Below, piece after piece: positions 12,452-36,063 of a DNA stretch of 51,069 bases. The stretch's first letter is position 1. Every line of letters begins with the position of its first letter. The stretch lies in the IMG/VR virus record IMGVR_UViG_3300042987_001724; one strand, 5' to 3'. The notes beneath the pieces are model-generated. The model was not told the origin of the DNA, did no database searches, and saw only the letters and a list, made by a program, of their open reading frames with translations. Origin of the DNA: a virus. Its lineage: Duplodnaviria; Heunggongvirae; Uroviricota; Caudoviricetes. Both the position numbers and the translations under genes were made by a program.

Positions 12452-13696
12452 ATGAACCAGCAGTTGACATCGCGAGAAATGTACGAAATCAAGTCGATCG
12501 GGTACACCCCGCCACCGGGGCATCGCGGTTCGATGATGGACATGGGGCTACCGGGCTTCACGCTGCGACAGGTGGAGCAGATGCGTCGCGATTCCCAAGT
12601 CAAACTGGGAATGGCGATCAAAACGGCTCCGCTGATGCACGTCAAATTTGAGTGTACCGGACGACCAGACATCGTTCAGTTCGTCACCGGCCAGATGAAA
12701 TCGATATGGGATGAAGCCATCACCAAGATTTCGTCAGCACTCTGGTACAAGGTCCACGCTTCGGAGCCAGTCTACCGAAAAAACCAGAGCACCGGACTGA
12801 TGGAAATCATCTCGCTGCGGGACTTCTACCCCGGAGACGTCGAATTCTTGGAGCAGTCGCAACAACTGATTGGGCTTCGAATCAGATCCTATCAGGGGTC
12901 GAGTGTCGACAATCCGAACGGCTATTTCGACCTGATGGGAATGAAGGGATTCCACTACATCCATCGGCAGGAATTCGGGGGCCGCAACGGAGTCAGCGAA
13001 CTGGAGGCCGCATATCAGCCGTGGCTCGCCAAGGTCGGACCTGACGGCGCAATGGCAGTGAGAACGATGTGGTTTTACAAAAACGCCTACGACAGCGGAA
13101 TCATCTTCCATCCCCCCGGAGTCTACGAATACAGAGCGGGCGAGAACATCGTCCAGATTCCGTATCGTGATCTTGCCCGGCAGGCTGTTGAGCGGGCAAC
13201 ATCCGGGGCGGTTTGGGCCTTCCCGCAATCCTACGACGAAAAGGGGAACCGGATGTGGGAGTTCGTCTCCCCGAAACTGAACGGCGACGGGAAATCCCTG
13301 ATTGATTACGTCGAGCAGTTGAATGTCGAAATTTTGCGCGGCATGGGAATTCCCGACGACATCATCTCACAGACCGGGGGAACCGGAAGCTACGCCGGTC
13401 GTTCGATCCCGTTCCAAGCCTTCCTGACATCACAGAACGATACAGTCCGCGCCATCTTTCAGGCGATCGAAAAGCAGATTCTTGCCAACTTGGCGATGTG
13501 GAACTTCGGAAGCCGAGATTTTGAATTTCACGATGTTCAAGTCGATCGCGACAAACTTCTGCCATCGGATCAGCCACAACCACCCGCAGGAATGGCTCCG
13601 CCGGAAATGGGCGGAGATCCGTCGCAAGATCCAAACGCGATGGCGGCGGCACAAGCCGGTCAGCCAATGCAACCCGCTCCGGCGGCTGCCGCGTAA
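12452..13696 (+). CDS. Portal protein, DUF935/Mu gp29-like
   Basis: Size and motifs (QMRRDSQVK, SELEAAYQPW, GIPDDIISQTGGTGSYA); Pro/Gln/Ala low-complexity tail. Confidence 0.65.
   Translation: MNQQLTSREMYEIKSIGYTPPPGHRGSMMDMGLPGFTLRQVEQMRRDSQVKLGMAIKTAPLMHVKFECTGRPDIVQFVTGQMKSIWDEAITKISSALWYKVHASEPVYRKNQSTGLMEIISLRDFYPGDVEFLEQSQQLIGLRIRSYQGSSVDNPNGYFDLMGMKGFHYIHRQEFGGRNGVSELEAAYQPWLAKVGPDGAMAVRTMWFYKNAYDSGIIFHPPGVYEYRAGENIVQIPYRDLARQAVERATSGAVWAFPQSYDEKGNRMWEFVSPKLNGDGKSLIDYVEQLNVEILRGMGIPDDIISQTGGTGSYAGRSIPFQAFLTSQNDTVRAIFQAIEKQILANLAMWNFGSRDFEFHDVQVDRDKLLPSDQPQPPAGMAPPEMGGDPSQDPNAMAAAQAGQPMQPAPAAAA
13674..13695 (+). repeat. Left copy of an imperfect direct repeat (portal 3' end) bounding the Cas7-like cassette
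   Basis: ccgctccggcggctgccgcgta versus ccgctccggctgcggctgccgcgta at 15182-15206. Confidence 0.7.
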
Positions 13697-13698
13697 CG

Positions 13699-13728
13699 AA
13701 AACGCCCGGATATTTCACCGGGCGTTTT
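13699..13728. terminator. Bidirectional intrinsic terminator
   Basis: AAAACGCCCGG-ATATTTCA-CCGGGCGTTTT hairpin between the convergent portal and Cas7-like cassette. Confidence 0.85.
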
Positions 13729-13731
13729 CCC

Positions 13732-13771
13732 TTGACATGGCATGACATGACTCAACACGACTCAACACGCC
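13732..13771 (-). ncRNA. Pentamer (GNY-NN) repeat array A1, putative VIPR-type guide RNA, 8 units
   Basis: Minus strand: GGC GT GTT GA GTC GT GTT GA GTC AT GTC AT GCC AT GTC AA. Confidence 0.75.
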
Positions 13772-13804
13772 CCGCGTGGACAAGTCTCGCGAAATTTCGC
13801 CCGG

Positions 13805-14362
13805 CTATGACCACTTTACATCAACAACTTCAAATCGACCGTAATACCCGTTGTTTCTTGGTCGGAACCTACCGATCCCGATAAACCTCCCAGCGTCTTC
13901 AAGATGGGCGAGAAACACGTCTTCGTTGATCACCTCATCAAGAACAAGGAAGTCTACAACGCCAGACCATGATGGAATTACCGGGAACGTCTTTAGCACC
14001 CGAGTTGTGCCACCTCGCCTGCCGTCGCTTGGAACGTGGAGAGACTCTCCTTTCACATCACTGACATTCACGCCAAGAGATAGCGGGTCGCACACTAGCA
14101 ACCCCGCCTCAAAATGTTTTGTGTAGGTAGACTTGCCTTTTCCCGGTATCTGGATCGACTTGTACTTTGCCGCCTCCGCAAGACAATTCTTAAATGACAT
14201 TGGCGGGATGAATACGACACCATTCTCATCAGCATGCAGCCGCTCTCGCCATGTCCGTTGCTCAAATTCGTCGTGCGTTTCATCGCGAGACTTCTTTGAC
14301 TGAATAAACCTCGACTGGCTGTATGGACTAATCGACTTCAACGTAGCACTGGCTGTTCTCAT
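13805..14362 (-). CDS. Stand-alone Cas7/RAMP-like protein (Vipr-like RNA-guided effector)
   Basis: RAMP hallmarks: N-terminal strand ATLKSISPY, FIPPMSFKNCLAEAA (IPGSSLKG-like), C-terminal Gly-loop GIGRFRPRNNGYYGRF; flanked by pentamer arrays; no other cas genes. Confidence 0.8.
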   Translation of the reverse strand: MRTASATLKSISPYSQSRFIQSKKSRDETHDEFEQRTWRERLHADENGVVFIPPMSFKNCLAEAAKYKSIQIPGKGKSTYTKHFEAGLLVCDPLSLGVNVSDVKGESLHVPSDGRRGGTTRVLKTFPVIPSWSGVVDFLVLDEVINEDVFLAHLEDAGRFIGIGRFRPRNNGYYGRFEVVDVKWS

Positions 14363-14385
14363 TCCGTTCCCCTAAACTGAAAACA

Positions 14386-14435
14386 TTGACACGACTCAAC
14401 CCGCCTCGCCACAACTGGCCCCGGCTTGACCCGCC
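14386..14435 (-). ncRNA. Pentamer repeat array A2, 10 units
   Basis: Minus strand: GGC GG GTC AA GCC GG GGC CA GTT GT GGC GA GGC GG GTT GA GTC GT GTC AA. Confidence 0.8.
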
Positions 14436-14465
14436 GAGCGACACACGATAAACAAACAATAAACC

Positions 14466-14525
14466 TTGACATGCTTGGCCTCGACCCGACATGACTCACC
14501 GCGACATGCCCCGACTAGACCTGAC
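14466..14525 (-). ncRNA. Pentamer repeat array A3, 12 units
   Basis: Minus strand: GTC AG GTC TA GTC GG GGC AT GTC GC GGT GA GTC AT GTC GG GTC GA GGC CA AGC AT GTC AA. Confidence 0.8.
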
Positions 14526-14529
14526 CAAA

Positions 14530-15012
14530 TCATCCCCCGAATAACTTGAGCGTCTCGCCGATTGCGAGTGGTGAATCCCCTGTCACTTTCGACTCAATTT
14601 TCTTCGATGACTTACTGGACCCAAACAGCTTGATCGCCCCTAACTGCGCCGACTTGGTCAAATGCGATTTTCGAGACTCTGGTGACAACTCATCAAACTC
14701 AATGTTTTGCAGGATCTTCATCCCCTTGCTGGCGGCACGACGCGCCTTCCCGACGAAAGACCCACCGGCATTCACAGCGCCGTCTCCATCGAGACGCTTC
14801 AAGCCCTCGCCGAAAATCACATCAAAATGAATTTTCTCTTCGACTAGAGTCTTTCGGGCTGTCGCCAAGTTGCCGCGACAAAACTCCCTTACGTCCCTTC
14901 CTAGGATTGTCGACAGTTCCGTATACGGAATGACGTCACCCGGAGACGTGTTTCTCAATCTGTTCTCAAGAATCGACGTGTCAGCCGACTTTTCTCGAAT
15001 ACCCTTGCTCAT
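14530..15012 (-). CDS. Accessory protein of the Cas7-like cassette (160 aa, possible N-terminal winged helix)
   Basis: GGAG RBS before the ATG at 15012 (MSKGIREK...); located between arrays A3 and A4. Confidence 0.75.
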   Translation of the reverse strand: MSKGIREKSADTSILENRLRNTSPGDVIPYTELSTILGRDVREFCRGNLATARKTLVEEKIHFDVIFGEGLKRLDGDGAVNAGGSFVGKARRAASKGMKILQNIEFDELSPESRKSHLTKSAQLGAIKLFGSSKSSKKIESKVTGDSPLAIGETLKLFGG

Positions 15013-15022
15013 ACAAAACTCC

Positions 15023-15082
15023 TTGACTCGAATCGCCTGAACGAGCCTCGTCATGCCCAAACGCGACGCGACACAACTCGAC
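15023..15082 (-). ncRNA. Pentamer repeat array A4, 12 units
   Basis: Minus strand: GTC GA GTT GT GTC GC GTC GC GTT TG GGC AT GAC GA GGC TC GTT CA GGC GA TTC GA GTC AA. Confidence 0.75.
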
Positions 15083-15126
15083 AAATACAATACGACACCA
15101 TTCACATCGCGGATCACAAGTATTTT

Positions 15127-15145
15127 GCAGTTTCTGGGAAAATTC
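15127..15145. promoter_or_regulatory. 19-bp operator GCAGTTTCTGGGAAAATTC upstream of the Cas7-like cassette
   Basis: Matches the phage-wide 8-3-8 motif. Confidence 0.6.
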
Positions 15146-15181
15146 CACTAACGCGGCTTCCGCTTCCGAATTCGGATCAAG

Positions 15182-15206
15182 CCGCTCCGGCTGCGGCTGC
15201 CGCGTA
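15182..15206 (+). repeat. Right copy of the portal 3'-end direct repeat
   Basis: Encodes APAAAAA* like the portal end APAAAA*. Confidence 0.7.
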
Positions 15207-15317
15207 GTTGCGTCAACCTTTCGGTGTTGGTAGCTTTTTGGCGTGATCTGCGCTGCCCAGACTGCGTTAAACAATGCAGTCCCACCGAATTATTGCAGTT
15301 AAATACGGAGTGTTGAC

Positions 15318-15617
15318 ATGAATCGCATCAAGGCTTACGGAATGATTCTTCTTGGAGTACCAGCGGGGTACATCGCCAGTTACTTCATGCAGGCAAGCAC
15401 ATTGCGACTCTTCATGTCGCTGGGGCAGTACATCATGTCCGCTCACAAGATTCTGCTGCCGAATAAATTTGGGCAGATAATGCGAGACGGTGAGGCGGTT
15501 CAAGGTGCGTACATCACCGCGTTTGTCGGGATAGCCATTGGGGTGATTGCCTTTGGTGCCATCGCCTACGCATCTGAGGCGAAGCCCAAGAAGCACCCGG
15601 ACGCTAAAATCTCCTGA
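15318..15617 (+). CDS. Small two-TM membrane protein (moron)
   Basis: Two hydrophobic segments; GGAG RBS. Confidence 0.7.
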   Translation: MNRIKAYGMILLGVPAGYIASYFMQASTLRLFMSLGQYIMSAHKILLPNKFGQIMRDGEAVQGAYITAFVGIAIGVIAFGAIAYASEAKPKKHPDAKIS

Positions 15618-22984: not shown

Positions 22985-23344
22985 ATGGCTTCATGGGATT
23001 TTCACGACGGCGTCACGATCGAAGAACTGGACGACAGCAAGTTGCCTGAGTCCATTCGTGGCCTTGGCATCGACAACATTGATTTCGTAATACACTGCAC
23101 CGGCTACTACCAGCCCGCCAGCATGTACGGCGGTCCTGACCATCTTGGCTGGCCCGCAGAAGGCGATGATGAGCGAGAGATCGTCTCAATGAGGGTGTTC
23201 AACGCTGATGGCGTCCTGATTTTACTGTCGCCGCAGCAGATGGCCGATATCAGGGCATTTCCGGATTTCCTCAAGGCCATCGAATCCGCCGACCTCGACT
23301 GGCCAGACCACGACGCTGACCGCGAATACGCACAAGGGGACTGA
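22985..23344 (+). CDS. Acidic hypothetical protein
   Basis: GGAGG RBS; first gene of the rightward early operon. Confidence 0.75.
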   Translation: MASWDFHDGVTIEELDDSKLPESIRGLGIDNIDFVIHCTGYYQPASMYGGPDHLGWPAEGDDEREIVSMRVFNADGVLILLSPQQMADIRAFPDFLKAIESADLDWPDHDADREYAQGD

Positions 23345-35166: not shown

Positions 35167-36063
35167 TCATGTGGATTGGTCAGGTGATTGAAACATCGCC
35201 GCCAGCCCAAGTGGATCTCCGGTTGACCGATTGGCGCGGCTCCATGTGATATGACGCAGCTTCCCGCGATCACGGTCAGCATCGGTAATCACTCGCCACA
35301 GCCCGTCTCGCACAATCGAAACGAAGTAGGCCACGCGACTCTCGACAGGCTCGCCGCCAAGTGCATCAACGGACAGTGCACGCTCCGCCGCCGCGATAAC
35401 CTTGAGTTCGTTTTCGTGACACGGCTCAACGAGCTTCGTGTGGTTCAGCCAGTCGACGAGCTTCTGGGTGTCTTTCAGATCCGAATCTTTCAAATCCCAT
35501 TTTCCGAAGTTTTCGGGGGCCGCAATGGGTTCAGGAATGGGATTAGGTGTTTTAGGATTAGGTATAAGAGTGTATTGCTTTCCGCACGTTTGCGGTATTG
35601 GTTCCGGCGCGGTTGCTGCATTAGTTTCCGCATGGTTGCTGCATTGGTTTCCGCATGGTTGCTGTATTACTGGTGATACACAATCTTCAGGTTCAGTAGG
35701 GTAGTGCTCTCTCACAAAGCCAATCTCGGAGTCCTCGATGTCCCTCGCATGCTGCGGGATCGTGATCCAATATTTACCCGGAACACCCTTCTTGCCATGC
35801 TCATAATGCAGCCAGCCGCTTTTCACGGCCTTGTCTCTCGCTCTCGCAAGTGTTTGCCTGTCGCTAAACCCTGCCACTGGGACAAGTTGCTCGTCATACC
35901 ATGTGATCGGCCTCCGGTATCTGGCGGAGTCCTCAGTCTGGCCAATCACAACCAACAGGCTAAACGCGCCGTGGCCGATCTCGTTGATGAGGCATGTTCG
36001 CATCATCAGTCTCATCGCCTTGTGTGCGAAGAATGGCTCTCGCTTCGGATACTCCGCCTTCAT
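35167..36063 (-). CDS. Phage replication initiator (lambda O-like organisation)
   Basis: N-terminal wHTH-like region, internal iterons, directly upstream of dnaB. Confidence 0.7.
   Translation of the reverse strand: MKAEYPKREPFFAHKAMRLMMRTCLINEIGHGAFSLLVVIGQTEDSARYRRPITWYDEQLVPVAGFSDRQTLARARDKAVKSGWLHYEHGKKGVPGKYWITIPQHARDIEDSEIGFVREHYPTEPEDCVSPVIQQPCGNQCSNHAETNAATAPEPIPQTCGKQYTLIPNPKTPNPIPEPIAAPENFGKWDLKDSDLKDTQKLVDWLNHTKLVEPCHENELKVIAAAERALSVDALGGEPVESRVAYFVSIVRDGLWRVITDADRDRGKLRHITWSRANRSTGDPLGLAAMFQSPDQST
35611..35668. repeat. Iteron-like 23-bp tandem repeat (putative origin)
   Basis: GGTTGCTGCATT-RGTTTCCGCAT x2.5 inside the initiator gene; extra TTTCCGCA at 35579. Confidence 0.7.

Follow-up and report, generated by a model that had tools for sequence, protein, structure and literature searches.

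The cassette and its two proteins

We analysed a 51,069-nucleotide stretch of viral DNA (IMG/VR record IMGVR_UViG_3300042987_001724, Caudoviricetes), here called the window, and found on its minus strand a compact cassette of 1.5 kb in which two small genes stand among four arrays of phased 5-nt units. This cassette, from an uncultivated phage, is very probably a Viral Interference Programmable Repeat (VIPR) system, a CRISPR-related and RNA-guided kind of DNA silencer. The identification is based on homology to the Vipr protein of phage SUSP1, a RAMP fold, structural matches to founding Vipr entries, a two-gene phage locus with no CRISPR array found, the arrays themselves, the turnover of their variable dinucleotides (NN) and a match of one decoded array to another viral contig. 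Read along the minus strand from 15145 to 13698, the order is palindromic motif, array A4, a gene for 160 amino acids (aa), array A3, T-rich spacer, array A2, a gene for 185 aa, array A1, and a hairpin with a U-tract. A first-pass annotation, made from the letters alone, had proposed this layout, and all of its elements could be mapped:

15178..15207, plus strand: right copy of a direct repeat, the duplicated 3' end of the portal gene with its own stop codon (sequence repeat)
15127..15145, unstranded: copy of a palindromic motif of the GAAGTTTC-N3-GAAACTTC type, 45 nt upstream of A4, a candidate promoter or operator element
15023..15082, minus strand: array A4, a vrRNA candidate of 12 units (phased-unit scan), whose GTCAA-GG end overlaps the vap ribosome-binding site
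14530..15012, minus strand: vap-like accessory gene, 160 aa, with a winged-helix-like N-terminal part and a helical extension (homologue adjacency, AlphaFold2)
14461..14525, minus strand: array A3, 13 units (phased-unit scan)
14436..14460, minus strand: T-rich spacer, 25 nt, between A3 and A2, preserving the phase
14386..14435, minus strand: array A2, 10 units, stopping 23 nt ahead of the vipr start codon (phased-unit scan)
13805..14362, minus strand: vipr, encoding a 185-aa minimal RAMP (Cas7-like) protein (homology and predicted fold)
13732..13786, minus strand: array A1, 11 units, 3' of vipr (phased-unit scan)
13698..13729, minus strand: terminator-like hairpin, 12-bp stem and U-tract, common to the convergent portal gene (101-nt stretch, -43.5 kcal/mol, z -3.5)
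13670..13697, plus strand: left copy of the direct repeat, the 3' end of the portal gene (sequence repeat)

Neither gene product matched a Pfam family. In a phmmer search of the 185-aa product against all PDB chains, the 'SUSP1 Vipr protein' (36pp) ranked first (E = 7.6e-5), and a family profile of 48 members matched 36pp alone in the PDB, over nearly the full length (E = 1.7e-12). The AlphaFold2 model of this product (pLDDT 96.5) has type VII Cas7, Csm3 and Cmr4 as its top solved structural matches (Foldseek E = 9e-8; VIA-align Z about 11). The RAMP fold, which the first-pass annotation had proposed on the strength of peptide motifs that are indeed present in the 185-aa translation, is thus borne out by structure prediction. 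The five top-ranking AlphaFold-cluster matches (X1U2U4, A0A0F9A1L0, A0A661D0E2, A0A2D6XG06 and A0A1F4YLN4) are exactly the five founding Vipr entries named in a VIPR preprint (bioRxiv 10.64898/2026.04.26.720920), and the product also matches phrog_4652. VIPR systems, to which the annotation had likened the locus, exist in print, and the 185-aa protein is a relative of a characterised Vipr in both sequence and structure. The Vipr family comprises 4,117 clusters at 90% identity and 1,309 at 50%. Protein-collection entries for the products of the window give a Vipr of 131 aa (start M55) and a Vap of 174 aa (upstream start). Homologues and ribosome-binding sites favour 185 and 160 aa, respectively; the vap ATG lies at 15012, with AAGGAG 7 nt upstream.

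The 160-aa product is a predicted accessory protein, Vap. Its AlphaFold2 model (pLDDT 90.6) consists of an N-terminal helix-strand-helix-helix-wing followed by a helical extension. The solved structural matches of this model are weak (E 0.01-0.1) and are all winged-helix regulators, and its strong AFDB cluster matches are uncharacterised proteins. The sequence matches phrog_5926, showed no match among solved structures, and had no detectable tblastn similarity in 50,697 phage records, among which the presence of SUSP1 is unverified. Several VIPR types have DNA-binding Vap proteins according to the VIPR preprint, and the predicted winged-helix-like fold agrees with these.

Phased arrays and their conservation

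We searched the whole window for phased runs of G-[GT]-[CT]-NN with five or more good units. The scan recovered the four arrays, with 8-12 good units in each; the minus strand holds all of them, within 13732-15082. The sole other run in the 51 kb is a chance-level one of five units at 23290-23314; base-shuffled windows gave zero to three runs at the five-unit threshold and none of array length. We counted 46 units in total (12, 13, 10 and 11 in A4, A3, A2 and A1), where the first-pass annotation had given 42. Its description of a constant triplet in exact 5-nt phase holds for the phase, which is exact inside each array, and fails for the constancy. The triplet is G-N-Y, mostly GTC, with GGC, GGT, GTT and a few GAC or GCC; G-N-Y fits 43 of the 46 units and G-K-Y fits 39, and about 60% of the scaffolds are GUY and about 25% GGY. 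A3 and A2, 90 nt apart, are also in phase with each other.

All four arrays end with GTCAA, followed by GG in three of them and by TG after A2; past this terminal GTCAA and (G/T)G, their 3' flanks have nothing in common. A4 and A2 run directly into the ribosome-binding sites of vap and vipr. The folding z-scores of the array tracts (0.25, -1.26 and -0.55) are at the level of shuffled sequence, as expected for unstructured guides, and A1 alone stands out, through the terminator hairpin. An Rfam search at E<=1 over 13300-15500 returned two sub-threshold small-RNA matches, at the terminator only, and no ribozyme or hammerhead. Tandem Repeats Finder detected a 10-nt duplication in A1 and no CRISPR-like array anywhere in the 51 kb. 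The first-pass annotation had stated that neither a CRISPR array nor other cas genes are present. The former statement stands for the window; the latter stands for the ten large neighbouring open reading frames (ORFs) scanned, which contain no Cas family, the smaller ORFs of the window not all having been scanned.

We found Vipr homologues encoded in 131 IMG/VR stretches, of which 80 viral loci were kept. In 55 of these 80, the same strand carries a Vap homologue next to vipr, usually downstream; the vap gene lies upstream in the window and in six other loci. Phased arrays stand beside the genes in 71 of the 80. In these relatives, the scaffold positions carry 1.1-1.8 bits of information and the NN positions only 0.01-0.11 bits, and loci with 100%-identical Vipr proteins differ in NN strings and unit numbers (for example, L026-L029 and L068/L069). 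A conserved scaffold together with dinucleotides that differ beside identical proteins indicates that what is kept in the arrays is a phased nucleotide motif whose dinucleotides are hypervariable, and not a peptide; the reading of the annotation thus passes the test on homologous loci that the annotation itself had named. Among the three closest relatives fetched, two have a CsrA-family gene (PF02599) adjoining the VIPR cassette (L081 4224-4508 and L083 2986-3246), which follows the cassette in one and precedes it in the other.

Because a G-N-C pattern reads alike on both strands, the strand polarity of an array has to be judged by further marks. T at unit position 3 (GGT, GTT) occurs on the gene strand only. 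The arrays of the clade end with one to four units having AA as NN, then GG, then T-rich sequence. On the gene strand, AA is found among the last three units of 148 of 194 distinct arrays and among the first three units of 39; when the other strand is read, AA is among the last three units in 27 of 175 arrays. By these marks, all arrays of the clade run in the same direction as vipr. Eight relatives had at first sight antisense GTC arrays. We rejected this reading, since the reverse complement of G-N-C is again G-N-C, and on the gene strand these are GAC arrays with the same AA-then-GG ending. One relative (L011 2097-4312) has ten GAC-type arrays with about 180 units, separated by a conserved junction of about 25 nt. 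Another (L070 2853-5078) has eight GGC arrays, at least five of them with a conserved hairpin-forming tail after them. These differences indicate that the tail architecture varies inside the Vipr clade of the window.

The second scaffold base is G, the canonical state, in the majority of loci. It is U in the window and in L008, L021 and L057, and A in L005, L011, L017, L068/69, L075/76 and L080; a CGC scaffold is found in some related loci. On a maximum likelihood tree of 50 distinct Vipr proteins, the G-, U- and A-types interleave, the five U-type rows needing five changes, and branches with good support require U and A to have arisen at least three times each. One well-supported clade of five rows contains the window (U), L011 (A), L003/L004 (G) and L001 (mixed). 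In the sequence comparison, these types therefore look like states of one free position and not like separate kinds. G, U and A are interchangeable and are mixed within single arrays of this phage, and switches recur among close relatives, which led us to consider that the second triplet base may not be read by the protein in this Vipr clade; we put this tentative reading a little short of even.

The proteins offer a possible cause of such a free base. In SUSP1 Vipr, R138 and W178 cradle G2 and D177 contacts G1, according to the structural VIPR preprint. In the profile alignment, these residues correspond to F126, F166 and R165 of the window Vipr, respectively, and replacement of the cradling arginine and tryptophan by two phenylalanines might have released the second base. 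We infer from these alignments, short of proof, that Vipr proteins of this clade may stack on the second base without reading its identity. Only one protein position was found to track the G/U/A state, position 15 (S to G in six of the eight A-type loci); we do not rely on it, given the few and partly related rows. If the second base is indeed free, the design rule for this clade would loosen from GGY/NN to G-N-Y/NN, and the free base might serve processing or discrimination between co-resident VIPR systems. It would also bear on vrRNA engineering and on the design of vrRNA callers, as a caller for GG[CT]NN would miss most units of the window.

Predicted targets and rival explanations

We decoded each array by the published rule of one skipped nucleotide, that is, as NN x NN x and so on, and searched the resulting gapped patterns. 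For A4, the query had 22 specified bases, the terminal AA unit being omitted. It has a single exact match in IMG/VR (22 of 22 bases), in a 49-kb viral contig (IMGVR_UViG_3300030044_000029). The site, 35 bp long, lies on the sense strand of an ORF for a Cys-rich protein of 132 aa, where it encodes E-V-A-A-W-M-E-S-H-D-E, with all skipped bases in wobble positions. A second metagenome has an allele of 86% identity, which A4 likewise fits at 22 of 22 bases, though four of its 11 skipped bases and two residues differ, and homologues of 80% identity on at least 24 contigs match at 19 of 22. The 18-base patterns of A1 and A2 have two and one independent matches in the same collection, all out of codon phase, from which we estimate a chance expectation of about 0.006 for 22 bases. 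The A2 matches (one contig family), in which the skipped bases are first codon positions of an antisense gene, and the A1 matches (two single contigs) were themselves taken as chance. The exact gapped pattern of A3 has no match in the viral, metagenome or genome collections, and none with up to three mismatches in the A4 target contig. One of the four guides thus has a credible predicted target in an unrelated element, as judged by sequence matching.

After the published systems, the working of the VIPR system in the window can be proposed as follows. The minus strand would be transcribed, probably as one operon from near the palindromic motif to the hairpin. Vipr protomers would line up along each array, one per 5-nt unit, gripping G-N-Y and presenting the two variable bases. 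The filament would pair these dinucleotides with double-stranded DNA bearing the same dinucleotides spaced by one skipped base, and, once bound, would block transcription at the target, with the winged-helix-like Vap assisting. The likely use of the cassette is the silencing of a competing mobile element. For the locus in the window, we infer ribonucleoprotein assembly, DNA binding, repression, transcription and the true target from the present analysis and from the published systems.

Several points weigh against this picture. For transcription and processing, RNA coverage is limited to 13601-13791 (A1 and the portal end), from one unstranded 181-nt metatranscriptome contig that could be DNA carry-over or portal mRNA. 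Neither a conserved 3' tail nor an Rfam ribozyme was found that could account for the release of discrete vrRNAs if the operon is transcribed as one. The published GGY scaffold is found in only about one quarter of the units. Guides A1-A3 are without a credible target. The A4 target contig shares nothing with this phage (it contains no Vipr, Vap, arrays, common genes or copy of the palindromic motif), so that a common host would be conjectural. The self-target search covered 51 kb of a phage of about 115 kb. Finally, A4 has two further matches in far larger collections, one in a vapC-like gene of a bacterial contig of 1 Mb and one in a short ORF from an archaeal metagenome-assembled genome, so the A4 signal may be partly chance or a common peptide motif. 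These two matches are possibly chance themselves, with a rough expectation of 0.1-0.4 over the two big collections.

The vapC match would also allow a VIPR system aimed at the host, in which A4, for example, would silence a vapC-type PIN toxin of a toxin-antitoxin or abortive-infection module as a counter-defence. In frame and close to its 5' end, a vapC-like PIN toxin gene for 140 aa (L108 7771-8193), which follows a vapB-like gene, fits A4 at 22 of 22 bases. However, judged by eye from ORF translations, the contig seems to have a G+C content well above the 54% of the phage, which makes it an unlikely host, and collections of this size permit a vapC match by chance. The viral-contig match was obtained in a collection of roughly one tenth the size, and a diverged allele shows it again. 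We therefore consider a host target improbable and retain a competing element as the likely target of the VIPR system.

Alternatively, the guides might regulate the phage's own genes as a temporal self-silencing device, in keeping with the position of the cassette under a phage-wide palindromic motif and with the 64 kb of the phage genome outside the self-target search. In the 51-kb window, however, the best matches of the four guides reach only 14-16 of 20-24 bases, the level of shuffled guides, and the VIPR preprint reports no self-targets for the systems it describes, which makes self-silencing very unlikely. Equally hard to credit is a role of the arrays as DNA, as iterons or operators through which the winged-helix accessory protein or Vipr would regulate the cassette or neighbouring genes: the arrays do flank both genes, overlapping their ribosome-binding sites, and the accessory protein does resemble a winged-helix DNA binder, but DNA binding sites would conserve the whole unit, whereas here two of the five bases vary freely and differ even beside identical proteins, the array polarity is tied to the gene strand, and the window Vipr is homologous to a RAMP protein shown to bind such repeats as RNA.

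Variation, surroundings and comparison with published systems

The window stretch occurs in freshwater, aquatic and sludge metagenomes. We compared contigs from four sequencing runs, three of DNA and one of an RNA library, with the window. The cassette (13629-15174) is near-identical in the three DNA runs, with most of the differences in the 5' portion of vap. A1 is shorter by exactly 10 nt, or two units in phase, both in one DNA run and in the contig from the RNA library. In three runs, unit 4 of A3 (14509) has GAC in place of GGC, a change at the second scaffold position. Past 15174, the three DNA runs all depart from the window sequence, and a contig of run X4 joins 13684 to 15196, giving a cassette-less form. 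Both joint sites lie within the direct repeat, consisting of the last 27 nt of the portal gene including its stop codon, which is repeated at 15178-15207. These joints indicate that the cassette is a discrete accessory module (moron), gained or lost between the duplicated ends of the portal gene.

The cassette is flanked by a Mu-type portal gene and a tail-spike-like gene, which places it in a phage context. The 19-bp palindromic motif has 14 copies across 3721-46683 of the window, mostly in short intergenic gaps, and probably serves this phage as a promoter or operator element of its own; the copy upstream of A4 is slightly degenerate. A sigma-70 promoter scan of the locus gave matches no better than those of shuffled sequence. 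A stretch within vipr (14211-14230, codons D-E-N-G-V-V-F) is repeated upstream of A4 at 15089-15108 with 19 of 20 bases identical and in the same orientation. This exceeds chance for 1.8 kb, and the copy may be a recombination scar or a regulatory copy. Elsewhere in the window, Tandem Repeats Finder reported a 23-nt tandem repeat of 4.3 copies (35571-35668, score 119).

The window Vipr shares its fold (RRM core, G-loop and thumb) with Cas7, Csm3 and Cmr4, families in which one protomer per fixed step of guide RNA and periodic base flipping are established. It differs from them in a step of 5 nt instead of 6 nt and in sequence, with 7-19% identity. Unlike class 1 CRISPR systems, the locus is viral and not cellular, and no CRISPR array, repeat-spacer guides or other cas genes were found with it.

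The VIPR systems outlined in three preprints of 2026 (10.64898/2026.04.26.720920, 10.64898/2026.04.26.720927 and 10.64898/2026.10.15.759431) consist of a phage-borne Vipr, an accessory Vap and vrRNAs of GGY/NN pentamers. In these systems, each unit takes one protomer, NN pairs with DNA in which one base is skipped for every unit, and rival elements are silenced at the level of transcription. Compared with the exemplar type II system of Escherichia phage SUSP1, the window likewise has a minimal single-RRM RAMP protein with a G-loop and a thumb, a two-gene phage locus, and pentamer arrays of 10-13 units in the intergenic stretches that flank the genes on either side. It likewise has hypervariable NN, no self-targets found, and a predicted target in a coding sequence whose skipped bases are wobble bases. 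It departs from the published systems in three respects. First, the scaffold is G-N-Y and does not follow the GGY consensus; the preprint allows 'a related consensus', in a list that gives NNNGG, YNNNG and NNNNG and does not include G-N-Y. Second, type II systems have a vap1 accessory gene and, after each repeat tract, an invariable pseudoknot tail of about 40-60 nt, whereas the arrays of the window share only a GUCAA and G/U-G ending. Third, the arrays abut ribosome-binding sites inside what is probably one operon.

The cassette is therefore a fresh example of a kind already in print. The VIPR class is months old, and only the type II systems of SUSP1 and P. fulva have been dissected. Particular to the window are the U-dominated and evidently free second base, the absence of any structured tail found, the operon-embedded arrays, the A4 target pair and the presence/absence polymorphism of the cassette. 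To the published systems it adds a clean and compact example from a freshwater and sludge phage and a testable guide-target pair, A4 and the 35-bp site in a small Cys-rich gene. It also adds population data, in which arrays vary in steps of whole units and the cassette is gained or lost between the two copies of the portal-gene end, and comparative evidence for one free scaffold base in a large Vipr clade.

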